Of a stretch of DNA of 64,000 nucleotides, positions 22,422 through 43,590 are shown in pieces. This DNA is from a bacterium. Its GTDB lineage: Bacteria > Krumholzibacteriota > Krumholzibacteriia > LZORAL124-64-63. The notes under the pieces were generated by a model. The model did not search any database. It saw nothing but the letters and a program-made list of their open reading frames with translations, and was not told where the DNA came from. Position 1 is the stretch's first letter. Every line of letters begins with the position of its first letter. The stretch covers positions 12,552 to 76,551 of the forward strand of contig PIVY01000002.1 of NCBI GenBank assembly GCA_003353795.1. The letters are read 5' to 3'. The position numbers and the translations under genes are program-made.

Positions 22422-24290
22422 TCAGCGCGCCAGCAACAGTTTGCCCACAGCTGTCTCGTGGGGCGTGGTGATCCGACAGAAGTACACGCCCGACGCCACG
22501 GCGGAACCCCGCTGGTCAGTGCCGTCCCAGCGCCAGCTGCATCGGCCGGCCGCAATCGGGCCTCGAACCAGTTCACGCACCAGCATGCCTCGGGCGTCAT
22601 GGATTCGTACCTGCACCGTCGCGGCGCGGTAAAGGTCGTATTCGATGACGGTGCTGGGATTGAAGGGATTCGGGTGGACTCTCACGCCAGGCGCCACCAG
22701 CGGTGTCGAACCAACCGCCGTGGCGTATCCCTCATTGACCAGAGAAGTATTCGCGATGCCACGAACTTCAATGTTCACGCTGCCGATCTCCATGGGCGCG
22801 GCGAAGTCCAGGTAGAACAGGGTGCCGGGCTGATCGACCACTGCGTCCTCGCCGATGAGGGCGTAGGTGACGTCGAATGGGAACACGTCATCCAGGCCGT
22901 GGAAACCGACGCCGGCCAGTTGCTGGGCCAGAGGACCTTCGCGGCAATCCACGTCGCCCAGCGGTACGGGTCCCGTGAGGTGAAGGCCGATGAATCCCGG
23001 ACCCGGATCGATGACCTCGCAGAGCACCTCTGTGTCGCTGAACTGGGTGAGACGGACATCGGCGACCAGCGGACCGTCTATCGCCGGCCGCGGTTCGTAG
23101 GCGTAGATAGCGCCGAATCCGGTCGTGGCCAGCATCAGATCCTCGAAGTCGATGCGCCCGTCGGGAATCGGGAAGCCGTCGACGTAGCCGGAGCTGTTCG
23201 GGGCAATGTCGGCGATGGGCTCGAAGAGCGGGTCTCCGTCGCCGGTCGCGAACAGGTTGACGAAACGGCCGAGGTCGAACCAGTCCACGGCGCCGTCCTC
23301 GGCCGCGACGTCTCCGATGAGGTAATTGGTTCCGGCGTTCTCCGCGATCATCGCCGACGTGTACTGCTCGCCTGCCAGTTCGGTGAACAGCACGTAATGG
23401 TACCGACCACGCGTGACCAGGACGTCCTCGTAGTAGACGACGTGCGCCGGCACGGTATTGACCAGTTCCCACAGCGGCGAATCTACGGCGTCCTGGCGCG
23501 AGCTCGGATTGACGGGAACGACGGCATCGGGATGGCGCTCGTAGAGAGGGTACGCCGACGCGCCGTCCGGTGTGGCCACGACGGCGCGGTAGATCTCCGT
23601 GGCCACGATCTCGACCCCGACGGGATTGACCCAGTCGAGCACGATCCGACCGTGACGGGGAGAGACGGCGAGCCGGGGAATGGACGTGTCGGTCACCGCG
23701 ACGAAGTCGTAGGCGACGGATGCCTCAGCCGCCGAGCCGCCCACGAAGCAGGCCATGGCCAGACCGCCGGTCGTGTACGGCGGAGCCCAGGAATCGAACG
23801 TGAGGGCAAGCTCGCCGTCAATGGCCGCGGTGAACGATTGGCCTTGCGCTTGGACCTCGATGTCGAACCATTGCAGGTTGAACGCCGGTGGCACGTCCGC
23901 GTTGGCAAGCAGAGTCGAGTTACCGCCGGCGACCCAGTAGAGCCTGATGTCGTCGAAGGGCGTCGTGCGATAATTGAGGTGGTAGTGGTCGCCCGTCTCC
24001 TGCATCAGGAAATTCATGATATGGTTGGCGCCGACGTCAGACCGCATGCGATAGGAGACGACGAAATCTACGTCGAGGACGTCGAGATCGGTGATCGCCT
24101 GTGACAGGGTTCCGGAGCCTTGAATCGAGCAACGCGCGGCTCCGGCGCTGACCGACCAGCCGGTGTCGCGATAGAAGAACGGACCGAAAGTGCCGTCCTC
24201 GAAATCGACCATGCCGATCCAGCCTGCCGTCGATGGTCCCGCGGCCGCAAAGAGGCTCACCACGAAAAGGGCACCAATAGACATACGCAT
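22422..24290 (-). CDS. Secreted protein with an N-terminal LamG/ConA-like jelly-roll and a T9SS-type C-terminal sorting domain
   Basis: ATG 24290 follows GGGAGGAGG. The signal peptide is MRMSIGALFVVSLFAAAGPSTA. The C-terminus is HPNPFNPSTVIEY...IHDARGMLVREL...SGVYFCRITTPHETAVGKLLLAR. Confidence 0.75.
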   Translation of the reverse strand: MRMSIGALFVVSLFAAAGPSTAGWIGMVDFEDGTFGPFFYRDTGWSVSAGAARCSIQGSGTLSQAITDLDVLDVDFVVSYRMRSDVGANHIMNFLMQETGDHYHLNYRTTPFDDIRLYWVAGGNSTLLANADVPPAFNLQWFDIEVQAQGQSFTAAIDGELALTFDSWAPPYTTGGLAMACFVGGSAAEASVAYDFVAVTDTSIPRLAVSPRHGRIVLDWVNPVGVEIVATEIYRAVVATPDGASAYPLYERHPDAVVPVNPSSRQDAVDSPLWELVNTVPAHVVYYEDVLVTRGRYHYVLFTELAGEQYTSAMIAENAGTNYLIGDVAAEDGAVDWFDLGRFVNLFATGDGDPLFEPIADIAPNSSGYVDGFPIPDGRIDFEDLMLATTGFGAIYAYEPRPAIDGPLVADVRLTQFSDTEVLCEVIDPGPGFIGLHLTGPVPLGDVDCREGPLAQQLAGVGFHGLDDVFPFDVTYALIGEDAVVDQPGTLFYLDFAAPMEIGSVNIEVRGIANTSLVNEGYATAVGSTPLVAPGVRVHPNPFNPSTVIEYDLYRAATVQVRIHDARGMLVRELVRGPIAAGRCSWRWDGTDQRGSAVASGVYFCRITTPHETAVGKLLLAR

Positions 24291-24488
24291 GACGGACCTC
24301 CTCCCAGAGACATTCGGGCAATGAACACAGCATATCATGATTGGCGGCCCGCTTCAACGGTGTCCGTTGGTGGCTCACTTTCGATTCATGGGCGCGCGTG
24401 TTATCTTCCTGCGGCCCGTAGGGCGATTCTGTGGGCCCGAACTCGAACCCAAACTCGTTCGACCAGAACGAAAAAGGACCAATGACCC

Positions 24489-33723: not shown

Positions 33724-36700
33724 ATGAATCATCGCCCAACCCGACTGATCATCGTGCTGCTCACCTTGTTTGCCATCGTCCTCTCCGCGTCGTCGGCGCT
33801 GGCGGCGCTGGAGTGGGAGAAACGGGCCGCCATCGATCACGGCCTCGTGTGGCTGGCAACCAACCAGTCCATCAACGGCGACCTGGGATACTGGAGCTAC
33901 TCCAACGACGGCACCCTCGCCTGCACCGCCGCTGCGGCGCTGGCATTCATCGAGGAGGACTTTCTGCCCGGCGAGGACGTTGTCATCGACGACATCAACT
34001 ACGGCGACGTGGTGGGCTTCGCGCTCAACTACGTCTTCAATCACGCCGTCGCGGACTCGCGATTCGGCGTGGAGTACGCGGTCTACGAGCGATATGCCGA
34101 GGACTACGACAACGACGGCATCTACGACGACGGTAACGACCAGGCCATCTACTTCGATCCGGGGAATCCCAACCGGCGGGTCTACACCACCGGCATCTGC
34201 GTGCCCATGGTCTTCGCTCTGGGCGAACGTCTGGGAATCAATACCGTCATCGGTCGCGGCTCGGCGGTCGTCAGCGGCATGACCTACGCCGAGGCCATGC
34301 AGGATCTCATCGACTGGTTCTGCTTCGCCCAGGTCGAGCCGAATCGCGGCAACTACCGCGGAGGCTGGCGCTACGATGCGAACTACCCCGACTCGGACAA
34401 TTCCACCGCGCAGTGGGGATCCCTTCCGTTGCTCTACGGCGATTCGTGGGGGCTGGGAGCGCCCGACTACGTGTTCGCCGAACTGGAACTCTGGGTGAAC
34501 TACATCCAGAACGCCAACGGCGGCTCCGGGTATTCCAATCCCGGTAACTACGTCAACGTGGCCAAGACGGGCGGACTCCTGCTCGAGTTGGCGGCCATCG
34601 GCGCACCGGTGAGCGACGCACGGGTGCAGGCGGCGATCGGCTTCATCAACGGCCGCTGGAACACCGGGCCGTCTGGCACCTGGTACGGCAACCTGAATCA
34701 TCCCTATGCCATGTGGGCGGTCTTCAAGGGGCTCGAGGTCTATGACCTCATGGATACCATCACTCTGGATGATCTCGAGATCCTCTTCGGTTTCGGAATG
34801 TCCGCTGCACCTGGCGGCTTCCCCATCGGCACCGTCGACGACTTCGTCATATCCGAGAGTGGCGATTGGTACTCGCACTACTGCGACTACCTCGTGGGGA
34901 TCCAGAACGGAGATGGGGGCTGGAACGGCTATCTGCACTGGGTCGGCGCCATGGCGACCGGCTGGTACATCAACATCCTCGATGGCATCCGCGTGCCGGG
35001 AATCGGCAATCCGGCCATCAGGCTGGTCTCCGAGATTCCCGATGCTTGCGCCAATCCTGGCGACCCGGTGCTCCACACCGCCGCATTCTGGTACGGCACG
35101 CCGGGCTTCCCCGATCCCGACACGCTGCCGGCCGAGAACGTCGAGGTGCTGCTCACCCTCAATCAGCACATGACGTTCGTCGCAGCCAGCGATGGCGGCA
35201 CCTACGACGTGGGCGCCCATACGGTCACCTGGTCCATCGGTGAACTGGCCGACGGAGAGGTGGATACGGTCACCGTGGACGCGGTCGTCGCCGGCACGGC
35301 GCCTGCCGACGCCGAGCTGATCACCGAAGTCGACGTGAGTGCGACCAACGTACAGGAGGAGGACTGGGGCCACGACGAGACGGAGGTTCTCACCTGCGTG
35401 TCCACCTGCGTCTGGAACGTCGCTACCGACGTGGTCGAGCGCGGCGCCACCCACGGCGTGGCCTGGGGCGATTACGACAATGATCAGGACCCCGATCTCC
35501 TGGTCACCGGCAGCGGCTTGAACCACCTGTACGAGAACGTGGACGGCGTGCTCGTGATGGTCGAGGGCTGGTGCGAAGACGAGGAGCCGTCCTACGGAGC
35601 CGCCTGGGCCGACTACGACAACGACGGCGATCTCGATGTCTACGTCGTGAACTCCCTGGTGGCCAACGCGCTCTACAACAACGACGCCGGCGTGTTCACC
35701 CGGGTCGCCGCCGGCGATGCCGAGGACGCCGGAGACGGCTACAATGCCGCCTGGGCGGACTTCGACGGCGACGGCGATCTCGATCTCTACATCTGCAACC
35801 GAGACGGCACCAACCGGTTGCTCGAGAACGACGGCGGCATGTTCACCTCGGTGGGCGGCGTGACCGAGTACACGGGCATCACCCGCGGCTGTGCATTCGC
35901 CGACTACGACAACGACGACGATCCGGACCTCTACATCAGCGTCTACGGCGACAACATGCTCTTTCGCAACGACGGCGGCGTGTTCGTCGACGTCTCGGCC
36001 CCGCCGATGAACGACGGCGGCGAGGGCAAGGGCGTGGCCTGGGCCGACTACGACAACGACGGCGATCTGGATCTCTACCTGGTCAACACCCACGGCGCCA
36101 ACAAGCTGTTCCGGAACGACCTCGATGCCGGCTTCGTCGACGTGACCGACGCACTTCTCGGCGACGAGAACAACGGTCGCACGTGCGCCTGGGCCGACTA
36201 CGACAACGACGGCTGGATGGACCTCTTCTTCACCAACATCACCAGCGGTCGGAACATCCTCATCGAGAACGACGAGGGTGTGTTCACGGATGCCAATTGC
36301 GGTGTGCTCGAGGACACGGCGACGCTGGAATCGTGGGGCTGCGCCTTCGCCGACTACGACGGTGACGGCGACCAGGATCTGGCCATGGCGGTGCGCACGC
36401 TCAACGGTCCGAGCAAGGTGTTCCGCAACGATCTGACGTTCGGCGAGCCGGCGAACTGGCTGCAGATCGACCTGCGCGGCGTGGCCAACAATCGCTTCGG
36501 TGTGGGCGCCCGCATCGTGGTCGATACCGGCGAGCAGACCCTGATGCGCGCCGTGAATGCCAACGGCGCCTACCTGGGGCAGCAGCCGCTCACCGCCAGC
36601 TTCGGGCTGGGCGCGGCCACGCACGTGGATCTGACCGTGCACTGGCCCAACGGCGAGGTCCAGACCCTGGCGAATCTGCCGGTGAACCGCCGGCTGGAGA

Positions 36701-37026
36701 TCGTGGAAGCCGCCGGCGCGGTGGGCGTGGACGAGTTGCCGACGTCGCCGCTCCTGACGGTGACCAACTATCCGAATCCGTTCAACCCCAGCACGACCCT
36801 GGAGTTCTCGCTGCCGCGCAGCGCCGAGGTCGAGTTGAAGGTGCTGGATGCGCGCGGTCGGCTGGTCAGGACGTTGCTGGCCGGCGAGACCATGGTTGCC
36901 GGCGTGCATCGCGTGCGGTGGCAGGGCGGCAGCGACTCCGGTCGGGATGTGCCGTCGGGCGTGTACTTCTATCGGTGCGGTGCGGGCGGTGAGGTCGTGA
37001 CCGGAAGGATGGTGCTCTTGAAGTAG
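33724..37026 (+). CDS. 1100-aa secreted protein: alpha/alpha-toroid repeats, DUF11-like Ig domain, 7x FG-GAP/VCBS propeller, ASPIC/UnbV (CRTAC1-like) domain and a T9SS-type C-terminal domain
   Basis: GAGGAGG lies upstream. The signal peptide is ..LSASSALAA. Toroid repeats include GGWRYDANY, NGGSGYSN and QNGDGGWNGY. There are seven xAWADYDNDGDLDLY-type repeats. GARIVVDTGEQTLMRAVNANGAYLGQQ..HWPNGEVQ is ASPIC-like. The C-terminus is YPNPFNPSTTLEF...VLDARGRLVRTL...SGVYFYRCGAGGEVVTGRMVLLK. Confidence 0.9.
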   Translation: MNHRPTRLIIVLLTLFAIVLSASSALAALEWEKRAAIDHGLVWLATNQSINGDLGYWSYSNDGTLACTAAAALAFIEEDFLPGEDVVIDDINYGDVVGFALNYVFNHAVADSRFGVEYAVYERYAEDYDNDGIYDDGNDQAIYFDPGNPNRRVYTTGICVPMVFALGERLGINTVIGRGSAVVSGMTYAEAMQDLIDWFCFAQVEPNRGNYRGGWRYDANYPDSDNSTAQWGSLPLLYGDSWGLGAPDYVFAELELWVNYIQNANGGSGYSNPGNYVNVAKTGGLLLELAAIGAPVSDARVQAAIGFINGRWNTGPSGTWYGNLNHPYAMWAVFKGLEVYDLMDTITLDDLEILFGFGMSAAPGGFPIGTVDDFVISESGDWYSHYCDYLVGIQNGDGGWNGYLHWVGAMATGWYINILDGIRVPGIGNPAIRLVSEIPDACANPGDPVLHTAAFWYGTPGFPDPDTLPAENVEVLLTLNQHMTFVAASDGGTYDVGAHTVTWSIGELADGEVDTVTVDAVVAGTAPADAELITEVDVSATNVQEEDWGHDETEVLTCVSTCVWNVATDVVERGATHGVAWGDYDNDQDPDLLVTGSGLNHLYENVDGVLVMVEGWCEDEEPSYGAAWADYDNDGDLDVYVVNSLVANALYNNDAGVFTRVAAGDAEDAGDGYNAAWADFDGDGDLDLYICNRDGTNRLLENDGGMFTSVGGVTEYTGITRGCAFADYDNDDDPDLYISVYGDNMLFRNDGGVFVDVSAPPMNDGGEGKGVAWADYDNDGDLDLYLVNTHGANKLFRNDLDAGFVDVTDALLGDENNGRTCAWADYDNDGWMDLFFTNITSGRNILIENDEGVFTDANCGVLEDTATLESWGCAFADYDGDGDQDLAMAVRTLNGPSKVFRNDLTFGEPANWLQIDLRGVANNRFGVGARIVVDTGEQTLMRAVNANGAYLGQQPLTASFGLGAATHVDLTVHWPNGEVQTLANLPVNRRLEIVEAAGAVGVDELPTSPLLTVTNYPNPFNPSTTLEFSLPRSAEVELKVLDARGRLVRTLLAGETMVAGVHRVRWQGGSDSGRDVPSGVYFYRCGAGGEVVTGRMVLLK
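35602..36213 (+). repeat. Coding nucleotide repeats (FG-GAP blades)
   Basis: gcctgggccgactacgacaacgacggc(gatct) recurs identically at 35602, 36037 and 36187, inside the propeller region. It encodes AWADYDNDG. Confidence 0.9.
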
Positions 37027-37094
37027 GCGGCATCTCCAGCAGGAGAATCGATCCGCAATCGTAATGGGCCCGGGGCGTCAGCGCTCCGGGCTCG

Positions 37095-39887
37095 TCATCG
37101 GGGGAGATGTCCGACCTCCAGTTCGTAGGTCAACCAGGTGAGGTTCGCCCCGGAATCTGCTGCGATGTGGCGGCGGCGGACCTCGCTGAGCGCGTCCCAC
37201 GCGCCGGTCAGCCCCGCGCCGCGGGTGCGTGCGAGGAACTCGCTCATGAACGCCGCCGCGGCGGCGTCCTCGATGGTCCAGCGGGCGGCGATCACGCCCG
37301 CAGCGCCGGCGTCCGTGAAGGCATCGGCGAGGGACGGTCCGGTCACGGTTCCGATCGCGTGGCCCGAGGCGCTCCGGCAACTGGAGAGCACCACCAGCTC
37401 GCAGCCGGAGAGGTCCCGGCCCAGGATGTCGGCAAAGGTGAGCCGGTCACCGACGGGATCGTGATCGGCCGGGTCGGCGGCGCAGGGCAGGTAGCTGCGG
37501 TAGGGCATCTCCGGGTCATGGGTGGCGTGGCCCGCGAGGTAGATCATGCGGGCCCGGGGCAGGTGCTCGAGGATGGCCTGCTTGCGGGCGGCGGCGTCCA
37601 TCAGCAGCACGGGGTCGGGCAATCGCGCGGCGGCCAGCTCGGCCTCGACCCGGACGTACGGCAGGGAGCGGAGCGATGGGCGCTCGCGCTTCAGGGACGA
37701 CGAAAGCTCCGGCACGCCGACCACGCAGCTCAGGCGGTTGTCGCTTGCCGCGGTGGGCCCGTCGTCCACGAGCCGCAGGTAGGCCGTCTGCCAGCGCGCC
37801 GCGAGGGGCTGATAGTCCGCCGGATCGCCGAGATTGCAGGCCTCGAGCGCCAGCGGATCCACTGCTGCGGTGGTGGCGATGAGCAGGCGGCCGCCCGTGT
37901 CGGCCCGCACCCAGTCCGGCATGAGAACCTCGGTGACCTCGGCGAGCTCTCGCGCCAGCTCGCGGGATACGGGCGCGTGCGGCGTGGCTACCCCCTCGGC
38001 GAGGCGTAGAGGTACCACTGCCAGCAGGGGCGCCACGGCGTTCGCCGGGATCGAGTCGCAGGCGACGCTGCCGTCGATGATCTGCCAGCGGAGCACCTGG
38101 TCGCCGAGCCGGGCATACACCAGCGCCCGGTCGTCGCCGGTTCGCGTCCAGTCGGCGAGCTCGTCGGCCTCGCTGCGGCCAAAGGCCAGCAGGCGCTCCA
38201 CCGTGCCGCCTGCGCCGGTGACGTGGTGGGTGGTCGCGTATCGTCGGAGTTGTCGCCACGCCAGTTCGACGGCGAGGCCGCCGCGCGGATCGTCGGCGAA
38301 GTGGCGGTGGAGCTGCTCACGGAATCCGTCGAGGCGGCTCAGCATGAGGTACACCTCGACCCGCTCGCCCCAGGCCGAGAGCCTGGTCAACAGGTCGGCG
38401 AGAGCCGCGTCCGCGTGCACTGCAGCGAGGCTGGCGTCGCCCTGCAGCTCGGCGATCTGCAGCGCGAGGCGGCTAGTCTCGAAGCTCGGCGGCCCCGCGT
38501 CGACGGACCTGGCCAGGTGAATCGCGGCGCTGTCCGCCCGTCCCGCCGCCACGTGGCCCGACGCGATGATGGTGTGGAGGCGGCGGCCGTGGTCGCCGAG
38601 GCCTTCCCGCCGGACGTAGGCGAGGCCCTCGTAGGCAAGGGCGATGGCGCGGCGGTGCTCCCCCCGCTCGACGAGCCAGGATGACCAGTCGGCCAGGACG
38701 GTGGCGTAGTCGTAGTTCCGCGGCAATGAGGTCGTCAACTCGGCGAGGCACGCGTAGACCGAGTCCGCCGCGGCATGCCGACCCACGTGTGTCAGGTAGC
38801 CAGCCTGGGTGCGGAGGGTGACCGCCAGGTAGCTGGCCTGCCGCGGTTCGGCATTCAGGAGCGTGACCTGCCCGAGCAGCAGTTCGGCCCGCGGCAGTCT
38901 GCGGCCGACCAGGTCCCAGCAGCCGAGGTCAGCGTGGAAGGCGAGCCTGGCCGCCAGGAAGCGGACCTCGATGTATCCGGCGTCGAGCCGGCGCGCCACG
39001 GCCACGGCCTCGTCGTAGTGCTCGGCCGCCAGGCTGAGCTCGCCGCGACCGCGATGGTAGGCGGCCAGGATGGTGTGGATCCGGCCGGCCTGGGCGGGGA
39101 GTCGGGCTGCGAGGGCTAGTTCGAGGGCCTCGTCGGCCAGCAGCATGGCGGTGTCCCGGCGGCCGGCAGCGAGACGGTCGTCGCAGAGCGTTCCGAGCAT
39201 ATGGCTGAGCTGGGGCGTGAGTCCCGCCTCGCGAGCGAGGCGGATTCCGCGGTAGAGGTGCGCCCGCTTGCGGTGGTCCTGGCCGGCGTCGGCGGACAGT
39301 TCGACCATCCGGCTCTCGATATAGGTCTCGGACCAGGGGCAGCCGGCGAGGGAATCGGATAGGGCCTGCATGGCTCGGTACTTCTCGTCGACCGGGGCGT
39401 CGGTGGTCCGGTGGACGCGCATCACCTCATTCTTGAGGCGGGTCACGCGCAGGCCTTCGCTCGTCGGGTGCTCGCGCAGGTAGCGGACCAATGTCTGTGG
39501 ACCCTGCGAGTGACCGCGGTCGGCGACGATGGCGGCCAGGCGTTCGATGGCCGGCATCGTCTGCGCCAGTGACGATTCGTAGGCTGCGAGAGAGGTGTCG
39601 TCGATCGAGTCGATGATCAGGCCGACGTGGTCGATGAGCTGATGCGCATCGAGCGCGTCGCAGACCGCGGCGAGCTCGTCGTCGGTGCCGGAGACCAGGG
39701 CGTCGGCGAGGCGGGGGTCGAGGTTGGGCGCATGGCGGATCAGGATCGCGCCGGGAGCTTCGGCACCGGTGAGGCGCATGAGGACGATCACGGCCACGAC
39801 GACCACGATCGACGCGGCGGCGATCGACCATTTCGAAAGGGAACCGTGCCGGTGGGTGAAGGCCATCATCACGGGGTCACGGTTCAC
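37095..39887 (-). CDS. Membrane-anchored TPR-like / CHAT-domain (caspase-fold) protease
   Basis: GTG 39887 overlaps the anti-sigma stop (GTGA). There is one N-terminal TM (SIAAASIVVVVAVIVLMRL) with basic residues before it. About 590 aa of helical repeats follow. The C-terminal CHAT domain carries the His/Cys dyad contexts MIYLAGHATH and LVVLSSCRSASG. Confidence 0.85.
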   Translation of the reverse strand: MNRDPVMMAFTHRHGSLSKWSIAAASIVVVVAVIVLMRLTGAEAPGAILIRHAPNLDPRLADALVSGTDDELAAVCDALDAHQLIDHVGLIIDSIDDTSLAAYESSLAQTMPAIERLAAIVADRGHSQGPQTLVRYLREHPTSEGLRVTRLKNEVMRVHRTTDAPVDEKYRAMQALSDSLAGCPWSETYIESRMVELSADAGQDHRKRAHLYRGIRLAREAGLTPQLSHMLGTLCDDRLAAGRRDTAMLLADEALELALAARLPAQAGRIHTILAAYHRGRGELSLAAEHYDEAVAVARRLDAGYIEVRFLAARLAFHADLGCWDLVGRRLPRAELLLGQVTLLNAEPRQASYLAVTLRTQAGYLTHVGRHAAADSVYACLAELTTSLPRNYDYATVLADWSSWLVERGEHRRAIALAYEGLAYVRREGLGDHGRRLHTIIASGHVAAGRADSAAIHLARSVDAGPPSFETSRLALQIAELQGDASLAAVHADAALADLLTRLSAWGERVEVYLMLSRLDGFREQLHRHFADDPRGGLAVELAWRQLRRYATTHHVTGAGGTVERLLAFGRSEADELADWTRTGDDRALVYARLGDQVLRWQIIDGSVACDSIPANAVAPLLAVVPLRLAEGVATPHAPVSRELARELAEVTEVLMPDWVRADTGGRLLIATTAAVDPLALEACNLGDPADYQPLAARWQTAYLRLVDDGPTAASDNRLSCVVGVPELSSSLKRERPSLRSLPYVRVEAELAAARLPDPVLLMDAAARKQAILEHLPRARMIYLAGHATHDPEMPYRSYLPCAADPADHDPVGDRLTFADILGRDLSGCELVVLSSCRSASGHAIGTVTGPSLADAFTDAGAAGVIAARWTIEDAAAAAFMSEFLARTRGAGLTGAWDALSEVRRRHIAADSGANLTWLTYELEVGHLPR

Positions 39888-40744
39888 TCATCACCGTGAC
39901 GCGCGAGGATGGCCGCCGCGCGCGCGGCAACGGCCGATGGCGCGTGTCCGGCAAGCTGCTGGAGTGTCGGCAGGGCGTCGTCGGCATGGCCCAGGTCCAG
40001 CTGCACGATGGCCAGGTTCAGCAGCGTGGCTGGCTCCGTGTCGCCCGCCGCGATGGCGTCCTGTAGGAGAGCCTGCGCCCGTTCGAACTCTCCGCCGCGG
40101 TAGGCGACCACGGCGGCTGCCACAAGGACGGTCTCCGCGTCGGGGTAGCGCCGCAGGGCGTCCGTGGCAAAGGTGCGGGCGGTGGAGACCTCGTCCAGGG
40201 CGAGGTAGCCGCCGATCAGCCACATCGCGGCCGAGGGGTCGTTTGCCGAGTCGTGGTAGCGGTCGGCCAGGGCCTGCACGGAGGCCACGAGCGCCGAGTC
40301 TTCGGCGATGCCGCGCAGCGCCGGGCCGGCCTCGGGTTCGCCGACGGCGCCGGGGAAGACCATGGCGCCACCGTGCCGATCGGCCAGGACCCCGGCGATG
40401 GGGCCGACCAGTTCCGGCGCCAGCGGCGGCGGGTCGACGACGGGCGATACGATCAGGAACACCAGCACTGCGGCCATTGGCAGTCCCACGATCGCCGCCC
40501 AGCGCCGACGGGCCACGCGGGGTCTGACGCTGCCGCTCGTGCTGGCCAGAATGGTCGCCACCATCGAGGCCGGCGCGGCGAGCCCCTTCCGGGCGCGGAA
40601 TTCACGGCTCGTCGCCTCCGCCTCGAATACCGCATCCCGGCAATGCCGGCAGGACGCGAGGTGATCGCGTTGCCCTCGGCTCAGGCCGGACTCGCCGTGA
40701 TCGGCCAGCCGCGCCAGGAGTGCCGGGGACAGGTGCACGTTCAC
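39884..40744 (-). CDS. Zinc-binding (HxxxCxxC) anti-sigma factor with one TM and an extracytoplasmic TPR domain
   Basis: GTG 40744 overlaps the sigma stop (GTGA); the track N-terminal 230 codons are discarded. The ZAS motif is HLASCRHC. The TM is WAAIVGLPMAAVLVFLIVSPVV. The C-terminal TPR-like repeats are ..EFERAQALLQDAIAAGD..LNLAIVQLDLGHADDALPTL. Confidence 0.8.
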   Translation of the reverse strand: MNVHLSPALLARLADHGESGLSRGQRDHLASCRHCRDAVFEAEATSREFRARKGLAAPASMVATILASTSGSVRPRVARRRWAAIVGLPMAAVLVFLIVSPVVDPPPLAPELVGPIAGVLADRHGGAMVFPGAVGEPEAGPALRGIAEDSALVASVQALADRYHDSANDPSAAMWLIGGYLALDEVSTARTFATDALRRYPDAETVLVAAAVVAYRGGEFERAQALLQDAIAAGDTEPATLLNLAIVQLDLGHADDALPTLQQLAGHAPSAVAARAAAILARHGDE

Positions 40745-41640
40745 GACTTTGCCTCCAGCCCGAGGACGAGACGGCCGGCGCTGACGCCGTCGGCGACGCC
40801 GAAGGCCTTGCGGAGCTTCCGCAGGGCCCGTTCGACCACGGTGTAGGCCTGCCGCTGGTTCTTCAGCTTCATTTCCGACGCGATCTGGCGGGCCGACAGG
40901 TTGCGGCCGAAGCGCATGGCCAACGCCTGGCGCTCCTGCTCGTCGAGGCGGGCGAGTTCCGCGCGCATCCTGCTGAGCAAGTGGTCCCGCTCGTCGGTGT
41001 GCGACTCCGCCTCCGGCTCGATCTCGACGGTTCGGGACGAGGCCTCGTAGCGCACATGGTCCACGTACTCGAGCCAGCGACCCGAGGGCACGCCGAGGCG
41101 GTGGGCCTGGCGGTCGAAGCGCAGTCGACGGCGCGCACGGTGGTCCAGCTGTCCGTCCATGTCCGAGAGCAACGACAGGAAGTCTTCGTAGTCGAGCCGT
41201 GCGCCTTCCGATTGCATCCGGCCGTAGACCGCTTTCGACGGCCAGCCCTGGACGAAGAACAGCTCGAAGACCCGCTGGTCCGTGGCCGGACGGCGCAGGA
41301 TCGGTGCGGGCAGGCGCACACGGCCGCGTTCGCGGCGGAGGCGGTCGACGGCCGCGTTGCGGACGATGAGTACCAGCCAGGTCCCGAAGGACGAGCGGCC
41401 GTCGAACTGCTCGAGCTTGCCGCGGAAGAGGCACTCGAATACGTCGGCCACGACGTCGCGGGCGAGGTCGTGATCATGGAGATGTCTATGGGCGACGGAT
41501 AGGGCGAGGCCCGTATAGTCCGTCACGAGGTCGCGCCAGGCCTCCGTGGAGCCAGAGACGGCAGACTGGACCTGGGCGAGATCCTGGTGTCCTTGCAAGA
41601 GTGGTATCGCTCCGGTAGCTGCGGGGTTCGGCGCCGGCAA
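40741..41640 (-). CDS. Sigma-70 family (ECF-like) sigma factor with an unusually long sigma2-sigma4 spacer
   Basis: The sigma2 region is WRDLVTDYTGLALSVAHRHL..ARDVVADVF...FGTWLVLIVRNAAVDRLRRE. The sigma4 HTH is LDEQERQALAMRFGRNLSARQIASEMKLKNQRQAYTVVERALRKLRKAF. The start is assigned to TTG 41640 (uncertain). Confidence 0.8.
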   Translation of the reverse strand: MPAPNPAATGAIPLLQGHQDLAQVQSAVSGSTEAWRDLVTDYTGLALSVAHRHLHDHDLARDVVADVFECLFRGKLEQFDGRSSFGTWLVLIVRNAAVDRLRRERGRVRLPAPILRRPATDQRVFELFFVQGWPSKAVYGRMQSEGARLDYEDFLSLLSDMDGQLDHRARRRLRFDRQAHRLGVPSGRWLEYVDHVRYEASSRTVEIEPEAESHTDERDHLLSRMRAELARLDEQERQALAMRFGRNLSARQIASEMKLKNQRQAYTVVERALRKLRKAFGVADGVSAGRLVLGLEAKS

Positions 41641-41660
41641 ACGCCGTGGTTCCGCGACGA

Positions 41661-41689
41661 TTGTAACACATACTCGCCGTGCGTGTAAT
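41661..41689. promoter_or_regulatory. Promoter-like element of ambiguous orientation
   Basis: Plus strand reads TTGTAA (41661-66), 17 nt, TGTAAT (41684-89). The minus strand reads ATTACA, 18 nt, TACAAT pointing at the sigma gene. Both readings are plausible. Confidence 0.4.
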
Positions 41690-41695
41690 CCTCGG

Positions 41696-41784
41696 GACTC
41701 GTCCGTCTATAGCTACCATAGTTGGGGGATGAGGGAGAGACGCCGTCGGGACCGTCCAGCCATCGGGGCTGGGCGGTCCTTTTT
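41696..41784 (+). ncRNA. Candidate ~90-nt small RNA (promoter-like element to intrinsic terminator)
   Basis: It is defined only by the plus-strand reading of the 41661-41689 promoter and the strong terminator at 41749-41784. No convincing ORF is present, since MRERRRRD.. has no spacing to its G-run. Confidence 0.25.
41749..41784 (+). terminator. Strong intrinsic terminator with no annotated plus-strand gene upstream
   Basis: GGACCGTCCAGC (41749-41760), loop CATCGGG, GCTGGGCGGTCC (41768-41779). This gives 12 bp with one G-U, then TTTTT (41780-41784). Confidence 0.7.
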
Positions 41785-41816
41785 GGTATCGGCACGGGAA
41801 TCGATCCTGATTGGTC

Positions 41817-41845
41817 TTGACGGATCGCGCTCGTTGTCGTAATAT
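41817..41845 (+). promoter_or_regulatory. Sigma70-type promoter of the trp leader/operon
   Basis: TTGACG (41817-41822), 17-nt spacer, TAATAT (41840-41845). It sits in a locally AT-rich patch, ~50 nt upstream of the leader ATG. Confidence 0.6.
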
Positions 41846-41896
41846 TAAACATCAAATTCAAGCGCGCCGAGGTGCGCGCCCCGTCCGGAACCCGGA

Positions 41897-41986
41897 ATGG
41901 ACCCGATGACCCGCATCCGCAGCATCCTGATCGCGACCGACAGCCACCGTTATTGGTGGTCCTGGCGCGATCTGCCTTGCGGATAG
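41897..41986 (+). CDS. trpL: Tryptophan operon leader peptide (29 aa from ATG 41897, or 26 aa from in-frame ATG 41906)
   Basis: It encodes MDPMTRIRSILIATDSHRYWWSWRDLPCG*. UGG codons lie at 41954, 41957 and 41963. The stop TAG (41984-86) is embedded in attenuator segment 2. The ORF is too short for the ORF track. Confidence 0.65.
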   Translation: MDPMTRIRSILIATDSHRYWWSWRDLPCG

Positions 41987-42057
41987 GGGTCGTTCCGGAC
42001 ATCGAGACCAGCTGACAGACAGCCACCGGAACCGAAGCAGACCCGCTATCCGCAAGG
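41908..42057 (+). promoter_or_regulatory. Attenuator alternative pairings (segments 1, 2, 3)
   Basis: Segment 2, CCTTGCGGATAGGGGTC (41975-41991), pairs with segment 3, GACCCgCTATCCGCAAGG (42040-42057), over 17 bp with one bulge. Segment 1, GACCCGCATCCGCA (41908-41921), is a degenerate copy of segment 3 and can also pair with segment 2 (7 + 5 bp). Confidence 0.7.
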
Positions 42058-42072
42058 AGCGCGGGTTTTTTT
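42041..42072 (+). terminator. Attenuator terminator (segments 3:4)
   Basis: ACCCGC (42041-46) pairs with GCGGGT (42061-66). The upper stem is TCC-GCAA-GGA with a GNRA loop. A T7 run follows at 42066-42072, 27 nt before the trpE SD AAGGAG (42099-42104). Confidence 0.8.
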
Positions 42073-42111
42073 GTGCCCGGCAATGGCGCCGGGCGAACAA
42101 GGAGCGACCCC

Positions 42112-43590
42112 ATGGTCACGCCCGGCCTCTCGGACTTCCTCGATCTCGCACGCGACGGACGCACGGCGCCCCTGCGCCGCCGCATCCCCGCCGACCTGGA
42201 GACGCCGGTCTCTGCGTATCTCAAGCTGGCGCCCCTCGGTGCGGTCTGTCTGCTGGAGAGCGTGGAGCAGGGGATCCAGGTGGGGCGCTACTCGTTCATC
42301 GGCCTGGCGCCGCGATGCGCGGTCACCATCGAGGGCGACGCGGTCACCGTTGAGCGGGGCGGCGTCACCGAAACCAGCGACCTCGATCCCGCCGCGCCCT
42401 TCGCCGCCATCCAGGCCGAGCTCGAGCGGGCGCTGGACCTGGCCACCGGTGATCTGCCCGGCCCTCTCGGCGCGGCCGTGGGCTACCTCGGCTGGGAAAC
42501 CGTCCGCTACTTCGAGCGTGTGCCGCTGCCCACCGAAGGCCACGACGGTCTGCCCGATGCGCGCTTCGTGTTCCCGTCGCAGCTGGTGGTGTTCGACCAC
42601 GTGAAGAGCGAGATCGAGGTGGCGGTGCTGCCGCCGACCGAGCTTGCCGCGGAACCGGGATACGCGGCGGCGCAAGAGCACCTCGACCGTCTGCTCGCCG
42701 CCCTGCGCAGCCCGCTGCCGGCCGGCGCCATGCCCGAGCCGTGCGACCCGCTGGAGCCGGCGTCGCCCGAGATCCCGCGCGAACGTTTCGAGGCCTCCGT
42801 CGAGACCGCTCGCGAGCACATCCTGGCCGGCGACGCCTTCCAGATCGTGCTCTCGCAGCGTCTGCGTGGCCGCACGGCGGCGCATCCGTTCACGGTCTAC
42901 CGCGCGCTGCGCATCCTGAATCCTTCGCCCTACCTCTTCTACCTCGACTTCGGCGACTCCCAGCTCATCGGTTCGTCGCCCGAATCGCTGGTGGCCCTGG
43001 AGGGCGACCGCGCCCAGGTCTGCCCCATCGCCGGCACGCGGCCTCGTGGCGCCACGCCGGCCGAGGACAGCGAACTGGAAGCCGAGCTGCTGGCCAGCGA
43101 GAAGGAGAGGGCCGAACACCTGATGCTGGTGGACCTCGGCCGCAACGACCTCGGTCGCGTCTGTCGGCCGGGGACGGTCCGTCCGTCGAGCTTCCAGCAG
43201 GTGGAGCGCTACAGCCACGTCATGCACCTGGTCTCGCGGGTGGACGGTCGATTGCGGGAAGGTCTGGACGGCTGGGACCTGCTGCGCGCCACCTTCCCCG
43301 CGGGCACTCTCAGCGGCGCGCCGAAGATTCGCGCCATGGAGATCATCGGGGAGCTGGAGGACCGTCGGCGCGGTCCCTACGGCGGCGCGGTGGGCTACTT
43401 CGCGCCCGGCGGCGACCTCGACCTGTGTATCGCCATCCGCACCCTCGTGATGCAGGGCGACCGCTGGTGGGCCCAGGCCGGCGCCGGCATCGTGGCCGAC
43501 AGCGATCCCGCCTTCGAGTACGAGGAGACCCTGCACAAGCTGCAGGCCGTGACCCGCGCGGTGACCCGCGCCGAAGGAGGTCTGGAGTGA
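42112..43590 (+). CDS. trpE: Anthranilate synthase component I
   Basis: ATG 42112 lies 7 nt after AAGGAG; the track start 42073 falls inside the terminator. Family stretches are LLESVEQG..GRYSFIG, SPYLFYLDFGD, GTLSGAPKIRAMEII and RGPYGGAVGYF. Confidence 0.95.
   Translation: MVTPGLSDFLDLARDGRTAPLRRRIPADLETPVSAYLKLAPLGAVCLLESVEQGIQVGRYSFIGLAPRCAVTIEGDAVTVERGGVTETSDLDPAAPFAAIQAELERALDLATGDLPGPLGAAVGYLGWETVRYFERVPLPTEGHDGLPDARFVFPSQLVVFDHVKSEIEVAVLPPTELAAEPGYAAAQEHLDRLLAALRSPLPAGAMPEPCDPLEPASPEIPRERFEASVETAREHILAGDAFQIVLSQRLRGRTAAHPFTVYRALRILNPSPYLFYLDFGDSQLIGSSPESLVALEGDRAQVCPIAGTRPRGATPAEDSELEAELLASEKERAEHLMLVDLGRNDLGRVCRPGTVRPSSFQQVERYSHVMHLVSRVDGRLREGLDGWDLLRATFPAGTLSGAPKIRAMEIIGELEDRRRGPYGGAVGYFAPGGDLDLCIAIRTLVMQGDRWWAQAGAGIVADSDPAFEYEETLHKLQAVTRAVTRAEGGLE

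Follow-up and report, generated by a model that had tools for sequence, protein, structure and literature searches.

A sigma factor, a zinc anti-sigma factor and a membrane-anchored TPR-CHAT protein encoded as one unit in an uncultured Krumholzibacteriota bacterium: a three-component relative of DdvS/DdvA

We describe three adjacent minus-strand genes that form one unit in a 64,000-nucleotide stretch of a Krumholzibacteriota genome (assembly GCA_003353795.1, contig PIVY01000002.1, positions 12,552 to 76,551; hereafter the window, with positions counted from its first letter). They encode an extracytoplasmic function (ECF)-like sigma factor, a zinc anti-sigma factor with a single transmembrane (TM) helix, and a membrane-anchored protein in which a long array of tetratricopeptide repeat (TPR)-like helices precedes a CHAT (caspase-fold) protease domain. 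The closest solved relative of this last protein, by sequence and by fold, is DdvA of Myxococcus xanthus, an anti-sigma factor with a TPR-CHAT domain of its own. We give about an even chance to the reading that the unit is an envelope signal-transduction module in which the exported CHAT protease would cut the anti-sigma factor and so release the sigma factor. An earlier reading, made by a model from the sequence alone (the sequence-only reading), had called such an activation route undescribed; the idea that CHAT acts as a site-1 protease was in fact already proposed for DdvA (PMC11506125), and the reading is reasonable rather than new. What is new is the split three-gene layout, its occurrence in a lineage outside the Myxococcota with no defence island nearby, and a rare sigma subfamily with an extra domain of about 110 residues between sigma2 and sigma4. 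The three open reading frames listed at the outset are present:

40741–41640, minus strand: ECF-like sigma factor gene, 299 residues from a TTG at 41640
39884–40744, minus strand: anti-sigma factor gene, 286 residues, with a GTG start inside a GTGA overlap
37095–39887, minus strand: anchored TPR-CHAT gene, 930 residues from a GTG at 39887 or 924 residues from an ATG at 39869

The third protein bears out what had been read from its sequence, namely TPR-like repeats followed by a CHAT domain that retains both catalytic contexts, and it divides as follows (numbered from the GTG):

39777–39830, minus strand: N-terminal hydrophobic signal-anchor, residues 20–37, hydropathy peak 2.6
38142–39755, minus strand: TPR-like helical repeats, residues 45–582, including an LGCWDL motif at 321–326
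37098–38135, minus strand: CHAT (caspase-fold) domain, residues 585–930, with the PF12770 match and the catalytic dyad

Several marks of a CHAT protein of clan CD are found: a domain-model match (Pfam PF12770, E 3e-31, residues 651–911), a caspase-like fold and a conserved His-Cys dyad. His787 (codon 37527–37529, minus strand) lies in the motif YLAGHATH at 783–790 and Cys837 (codon 37377–37379, minus strand) in LSSCRSASG at 834–842; both are invariant in 11 full-length family members and nearly so across 31 diverse CHAT proteins. Because the 11 members share just 23–47% identity, this invariance argues for an active enzyme. The AlphaFold model (pLDDT 86, pTM 0.81) opens with a helix at residues 18–39, continues with 28 helices between residues 45 and 582 and ends in the alpha/beta CHAT fold; its top Foldseek matches are DdvA, Csx29 and separase. 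Within the repeats, all family members keep W324 of the LGCWDL motif (38910–38927, minus strand) and 10 of 11 keep C323; C829 (in SGCELVV), close to the catalytic Cys837, is likewise retained by 10 of 11. Such residues could conceivably serve a redox or disulfide function in the periplasm.

DdvA is a single-pass anti-sigma factor with an N-terminal zinc domain (ligands C6, H28, C32 and C35) and a TPR-CHAT domain that is periplasmic in the cryo-EM structure and carries the dyad His862-Cys907 (PMC11506125). Removal of the TPR-CHAT domain exposes the anti-sigma factor to RseP (PMC11506125), and it has been proposed that CHAT clips the juxtamembrane linker of DdvA in trans within a dimer, as a site-1 protease ahead of RseP (PMC11506125; PMC6061681). 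The profile of the CHAT family found here matches DdvA (8rot_B) with an E value of 3.6e-15, as compared to about 0.3 for separases, and in this match the family motifs AGH and stC align with ATH and AAC of DdvA, where H862 and C907 lie (PMC11506125). Foldseek ranks DdvA first as well (8rw5 and 8rot, E 7e-15), ahead of Csx29 and the separases. Because the structural alignment (about 950 columns against 872 modelled residues, at about 17% identity) spans nearly the whole DdvA chain, the window protein corresponds to most of DdvA minus the zinc domain, with an anchor of its own; and because the separate anti-sigma factor has a small TPR ectodomain of its own, the unit is a three-component relative of DdvS/DdvA and not DdvA simply cut in two.

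The likeness to DdvS/DdvA extends to the adjacent sigma gene, the single TM helix, the zinc ligands H28, C32 and C35, which are equally spaced in both proteins, the large extracytoplasmic TPR-CHAT region with its His-Cys dyad, and the site-1-protease working hypothesis itself. The two also differ. Anti-sigma and TPR-CHAT are separate genes in the window, each product with its own membrane anchor; the anti-sigma factor has a TPR ectodomain of about 110 residues, and it has His, not Cys, as its first zinc ligand; the sigma factor has an extra middle domain of about 110 residues; neither a cyclic-oligonucleotide-based anti-phage signalling system (CBASS) nor CRISPR lies near the module; and the hosts are uncultured bacteria, one of them known from an Eisenbacteria metagenome-assembled genome (MAG), whereas DdvA-like fusions have been reported in Myxococcota and one Comamonas only (PMC11506125). 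DdvA-type anti-sigma factors are single polypeptides, which the window module is not, and it may work like DdvA but outside that architecture. Csx29 (of the type III-E CRISPR craspase) and separase are cytoplasmic or nuclear, whereas the window protein has an export anchor; RNA-guided Cas7-11 or the loss of securin activates them, whereas the window locus has no Cas genes. The CHAT active site of DdvA-type anti-sigma factors is set apart from those of separase and craspase by its lack of a three-helix motif.

The anti-sigma factor had been described as a zinc anti-sigma with the motif HLASCRHC, one TM segment and a TPR domain, and these domain calls are supported:

40640–40735, minus strand: zinc anti-sigma signature, H4 plus H28-x3-C32-x2-C35 (HHCC type), from residue conservation
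40436–40501, minus strand: single TM helix, residues 82–103, hydropathy peak 2.6, predicted N-in/C-out
40247–40435, minus strand: predicted periplasmic juxtamembrane segment, residues 104–166, from a 12-sequence alignment
39917–40246, minus strand: predicted periplasmic TPR domain, about residues 167–276, matched by Pfam TPR_19, TPR_14 and ANAPC3

HLASCRHC occupies residues 28–35, and H4, H28, C32 and C35 are invariant in 11 homologues; the N-terminal helical domain thus has the H-x3-C-x2-C motif and upstream His of the class I (zinc anti-sigma, ZAS) domain. The Pfam zinc anti-sigma model has no match to the protein, and a Pfam scan of the N-terminus alone has none even at E 10. A profile of the N-terminal 72 residues matches RsiW and RslA at their zinc anti-sigma domains (E 1.5e-3) and DdvA at its N-terminal domain (8rlz, E 4.7e-3). 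The TM helix is flanked by 4–5 Lys or Arg on the N side and at most one on the C side, and the homologues are alike in this. Between it and the TPR domain, which the family profile matches to TPR structures with E values down to 3e-30, the juxtamembrane segment is rich in Pro and Gly and carries a conserved hhhPG motif (MVFPG, 128–132) as well as an invariant Arg144 with Gly or Ser after it. On the strength of this conservation we propose the segment as a candidate docking or cleavage site.

The sigma factor is ECF-like rather than canonical ECF because a folded insert of about 110 residues separates its two conserved domains:

41326–41529, minus strand: sigma2 domain, residues 38–105 (Pfam Sigma70_r2, E 2e-13)
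40996–41319, minus strand: family-specific insert of about 110 residues, residues 108–215, at the position where three-domain sigma factors carry sigma3
40804–40968, minus strand: sigma4 domain, residues 225–279 (Pfam Sigma70_r4, E 2.8e-5)

Its assignment to the ECF-like sigma factors, as first read, is supported by the sigma2 and sigma4 models that ECF (group 4) sigma factors match, although Sigma70_r4 scores 24.0 bits against a cutoff of 24.1, by TIGR02937 (NCBIfam sigma70-ECF; 82.9 bits against a cutoff of 42.9), which aligns end to end, and by its best Protein Data Bank sequence matches, which are ECF sigma factors. It is the insert that sets it outside the two-domain, short-linker definition of group 4 and takes away the canonical label. 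The database copy of the protein (P0036) has 285 residues, which places its start at TTG 41598. The insert is kept in every relative and is missing from a conventional ECF sigma factor in the same alignment. Its first 55 or so residues resemble the helix-turn-helix of the family's own sigma4 (probability 96% and E 3e-9 when insert and sigma4 were compared by hhalign within a family alignment of 59 sequences), and two linker helices follow; control comparisons on the family alignment, of the insert with sigma2 and of the linker with sigma4, returned nothing. AlphaFold models helices at 98–150 (block-mean pLDDT about 72–91), and the best Foldseek matches of the whole sigma model are three-domain sigma factors such as SigB, at a weak E value of 2e-4. 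A Pfam scan of the insert alone found no match even at E 10, and an insert-only search of 1.84 billion representative proteins found 66 clusters, most of them 260–320 residues long. The recognition helix of the insert is acidic. The insert is probably a sigma4-derived domain in the sigma3 position, probably not DNA-binding, the alternative being a very divergent sigma3, and the sigma factor belongs to a rare, unclassified three-domain subfamily.

Relatives of the CHAT protein are rare. A word-indexed search of 5.8 billion proteins returned four full-length relatives, the window's own protein included, and further loci came from genome and metagenome scans, the latter made with the CHAT alignment; the sources include one Candidatus Eisenbacteria MAG and one MAG labelled Fibrobacteraceae. 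Confinement of the triad to its source genome had been named beforehand as a ground for giving up the sequence-only reading, and the triad was found in further loci, which (under our locus labels) are arranged as follows:

Sigma, anti-sigma and CHAT genes in this order, co-directional: window, L001, L005, L019, L046
Anti-sigma then CHAT gene, the contig being too short to include the sigma position: L018
Sigma operon divergent from the CHAT gene: L003/L004, L007, L025
Sigma operon convergent with the CHAT gene: L022
Sigma remnant only, with an anti-sigma paralogue and the CHAT gene kept: L002/L024, L023
CHAT gene alone, family sigma and anti-sigma genes lacking: L006

The gene found most constantly next to the CHAT gene is anti-sigma-like; it adjoins the CHAT gene in 12 of 13 informative loci and is kept even where the sigma gene has been deleted (L002/L024, L023). 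The sigma gene lies beside the CHAT gene in 9 of the 12 loci that allow a judgement. The regulator operon ends with the CHAT gene in five loci, 0–55 nucleotides past the anti-sigma gene. Because the L046 triad was reached by a search from the sigma side, the link between sigma and CHAT genes is independent of the searches that began with CHAT. The split layout, with zinc anti-sigma and TPR-CHAT on two genes and each product anchored, holds in every family locus examined, and the three proteins diverge in step, as expected of a co-inherited module. That the linkage survives inversion and reshuffling is good evidence that the genes function as a unit.

One branch of the family shows a tandem duplication of the anti-sigma gene (L003 3204–4972; L002/L024 3071–4035; L023 1967–2999). 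L002/L024 and L023 have lost the first anti-sigma copy and most of the sigma gene, of which a remnant of 47 codons is left in L023 and a stub of 30 codons in L002/L024, while the second copy and the CHAT gene remain. After the second anti-sigma-like gene, L003 and L002/L024 encode a secreted protein of 987 residues with a sorting domain at its C-terminus; this protein was not seen in L023. The L003 protein was considered as a part of the module and rejected, the window having no orthologue but just similar C-terminal sorting domains. At L006 (1209–8301; the MAG labelled Fibrobacteraceae), the CHAT gene follows porin-like and transporter-like open reading frames, and an ordinary ECF sigma gene of 202 codons lies 3 kb away.

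Two GTGA stop/start overlaps had been proposed to chain the three genes, and they fared differently. At 40741–40744 the stop codon of the sigma gene is shared with the GTG start (at 40744) of the anti-sigma gene, the same 4-nucleotide overlap is found in L001, L019, L046, L003 and L022, and anti-sigma homologues open with the same M-x-x-H-L as the window protein; this junction is real, and its conservation in six loci supports the putative pairing of the anti-sigma factor with its cognate sigma factor. The second GTGA is present in the sequence at 39884–39887, but the GTG at 39887 is probably not the true start of the CHAT gene. An ATG at 39869 (924 residues) is likelier, because in L019, L046 and L018 the gene starts at an ATG 12–14 nucleotides past the anti-sigma stop, an arrangement that the window repeats (TGA-N14-ATG), and because the database copy of the protein (P0001) has 924 residues and the N-terminus MMAFTH. 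With the likelier start lying 14 nucleotides further downstream, the stoichiometric coupling of the CHAT gene inferred from the second overlap is doubtful; the three genes are still tightly packed. Upstream of the unit lies the following site:

41660–41689, minus strand: promoter-like site of the sigma-70 type in front of the sigma gene, ATTACA-18-TG-TACAAT with an extended -10, by consensus match only

Read by eye, TGnTAnAnT elements precede the sigma genes of L001 (TGCTATAAT) and L019 (TGATATACT) at a similar distance. Inspection by eye of the upstream regions of eight loci revealed no convincing common -35/-10 of an ECF-type promoter, and in these eight the housekeeping-type extended -10 was common only to close relatives. 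An Rfam scan across 36900–42200 gave no credible match.

These layouts and promoters bear on a different role for the CHAT protein, as an output of the system: the sigma factor would induce an exported protease whose substrates are other proteins, either of the envelope or foreign. ECF sigma factors often adjoin their targets, and at L003, L007, L025 and L022 the CHAT gene is divergent from or convergent with the sigma operon; it also persists where the sigma gene has been deleted (L002/L024, L023) or is absent (L006). As an output, however, the CHAT gene would hardly be expected to end the regulator operon, as it does in five loci, behind a promoter-like site of housekeeping rather than ECF type (window, L001 and L019), or to have as its constant partner the anti-sigma-like gene rather than the sigma gene, and the DdvA precedent fuses the TPR-CHAT module to the anti-sigma factor itself. 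We consider this role unlikely.

For the CHAT protein to act on the anti-sigma factor, the two would have to meet on the same side of the membrane. An extracytoplasmic CHAT domain, predicted from the outset, is supported by family evidence and by the periplasmic position of the DdvA domain (PMC11506125). An N-terminal hydrophobic segment is present in 11 of 11 full-length family members, its flanking charges, where they can be judged, favour N-in/C-out, and in three members (L005, L006 and L007) a Cys right after the hydrophobic stretch resembles a lipoprotein signal. These anchors, lipoprotein-like signals and charges lead us to predict that most of the CHAT protein is extracytoplasmic, in one compartment with the anti-sigma TPR domain, a topology drawn from hydropathy, the charge rule and the signals in relatives, which are simple rules and not a dedicated predictor.

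The data show what the domains are, that the catalytic and zinc residues are invariant, that the genes are linked and that the module resembles DdvA; a cleavage event, its site, a signal and a regulon we infer, in the following way. The small zinc-binding domain at the N-terminus of the anti-sigma factor would keep the sigma factor at the inner membrane, and the C-terminal TPR domain would face the periplasm. The TPR-CHAT cysteine protease, exported and tethered by its N-terminus, would occupy the same compartment. A signal from the envelope or from outside the cell, probably a protein that binds to the long TPR array, would render the CHAT domain active, and this would then cut the flexible segment of the anti-sigma factor between TM helix and TPR domain, a candidate site being the position after the invariant Arg144. 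A site-2 intramembrane protease and cytoplasmic proteases would remove the rest and so release the sigma factor. The mechanism is that proposed for M. xanthus DdvA, with sensor/protease and anti-sigma factor on two polypeptides instead of one.

Several points weigh against this mechanism, and our confidence in its cleavage step is moderate at best, because even for DdvA neither cleavage nor an activating signal has been demonstrated and the dyad variants H862A and C907A repressed normally, like wild type, in unstimulated cells (PMC11506125). Within the family, L006 has neither the family sigma factor nor the anti-sigma factor nearby, and in three loci the CHAT gene is divergent from the regulators, a layout that target genes typically have too. 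A further difficulty is the presence of a catalytic thiol in the oxidising periplasm, and Arg144 as the site is a guess from conservation alone. Alternatively, the CHAT protein could be a partner that does not cleave the anti-sigma factor, its TPR array binding the anti-sigma TPR domain and shielding it from another site-1 protease, as RseB does for RseA, or it could relay the binding of a ligand, with any proteolysis aimed at the CHAT protein itself or at a signal protein. Both proteins bear TPR protein-binding modules in the same compartment, and in the DdvA structure the dyad is in a resting state and the bulk of the domain blocks RseP sterically (PMC11506125). We nevertheless think a non-cleaving partner quite improbable, since the invariant dyad and its surrounding motifs in 11 divergent members suggest selection for catalysis, whatever the substrate.

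In its outline, the proposed cleavage of the anti-sigma factor by the CHAT protease resembles RseA/DegS/RseP and RsiW/PrsW/RasP, in which the ectodomain of a single-pass anti-sigma factor is removed by a site-1 protease before site-2 cleavage, and RsiW and the window anti-sigma factor share the same type of zinc domain. The known site-1 proteases of anti-sigma factors are serine proteases or metalloproteases, usually encoded elsewhere; the candidate here, in contrast, is a cysteine protease of caspase fold whose gene lies in the same operon. A link between an ECF-type sigma gene and a CHAT gene has a further parallel in group ECF54, which has CHAT, subtilase and carboxypeptidase genes in its conserved neighbourhood and for which proteolytic control has been proposed (PMC8999054). 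ECF54 was identified in Actinobacteria and is described as lacking an anti-sigma factor (PMC8999054, PMC7826278), whereas the window module has a zinc anti-sigma factor.

The surroundings of the module do not bear out the link to conflict and programmed-death systems that the sequence-only reading had drawn from the CHAT domain. The unit is flanked on one side by a convergent gene for a secreted FG-GAP/ASPIC protein (33724–37026, plus strand) and on the other by a divergent trpE-G-D-C cluster that begins at 42073; a gene for a DUF362 protein is also among the neighbours in the window. Csx29 and DdvA being among the best structural matches, and DdvS/DdvA controlling a defence island of CBASS and type III-B CRISPR (PMC11506125), one could envision an anti-phage or conflict system akin to Csx29 in type III-E CRISPR or to the DdvS regulon, but neighbours such as trpE/G/D/C, the DUF362 protein and the FG-GAP secreted protein speak against this, as does the observation that the flanking genes are different at every related locus. 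Of the PADLOC defence models, none matched the sigma or the anti-sigma factor, and the CHAT protein drew just a weak methyltransferase-model match (E 0.003) that is not meaningful; Cas7-11/gRAMP and Csx30/Csx31 were not found among the window neighbours examined or the called genes of related loci. Since, moreover, only a subset of DdvA-like pairs lies near defence genes (PMC11506125), we regard a defence function as very improbable.

Large secreted proteins with C-terminal sorting domains of the FlgD_ig or Por_Secre_tail type adjoin the module in several loci (window 33724–37026, plus strand, and 22422–24338, minus strand; L005 653–3871; L003 161–3124 and 8814–10994), which may reflect their mere commonness in these genomes or hint at a regulon. 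Upstream of trpE, the window contains a trp attenuator of the classic type (41817–42072, plus strand), comprising a promoter-like TTGACG-17-TAATAT at 41817–41845, a leader open reading frame of 29 codons (ATG 41898 to TAG 41987) that encodes MDPMTRIRSILIATDSHRYWWSWRDLPCG, with three Trp within four codons, and a terminator-like hairpin at 42048–42066 followed by T7 right before the trpE start at 42073; the region has no Rfam match. Between the sigma promoter and the trp promoter, a strong hairpin with a 14-bp stem is followed by T5 (41748–41780, plus strand); it is oriented to stop plus-strand transcripts, yet has no plus-strand gene upstream.

In DdvA, protease and proposed substrate sit on the same polypeptide and no activating signal is known, and the hypothesis of site-1 cleavage by CHAT is stuck at this point. 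Because protease and anti-sigma factor are separate proteins in the family described here, their binding and cleavage are directly testable. We know of no cultured member of the host phylum. Control of sigma factors linked to TPR-CHAT extends beyond the Myxococcota and is uncoupled from defence islands, a distribution that points to a more general role in envelope sensing, and the sigma factor, whose folded sigma4-like domain occupies the sigma3 position, does not fit the two-domain definition of the ECF group. We hold only tentatively, at rather less than an even chance, that the periplasm-tethered caspase-fold protease is the trans-acting, signal-sensing site-1 protease of a separate zinc anti-sigma factor and that the sigma factor so released is a three-domain protein whose middle domain came from a duplicated sigma4. 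If that is true, it would add a third enzyme class to those that carry out site-1 cleavage of anti-sigma factors, together with a new sigma architecture.

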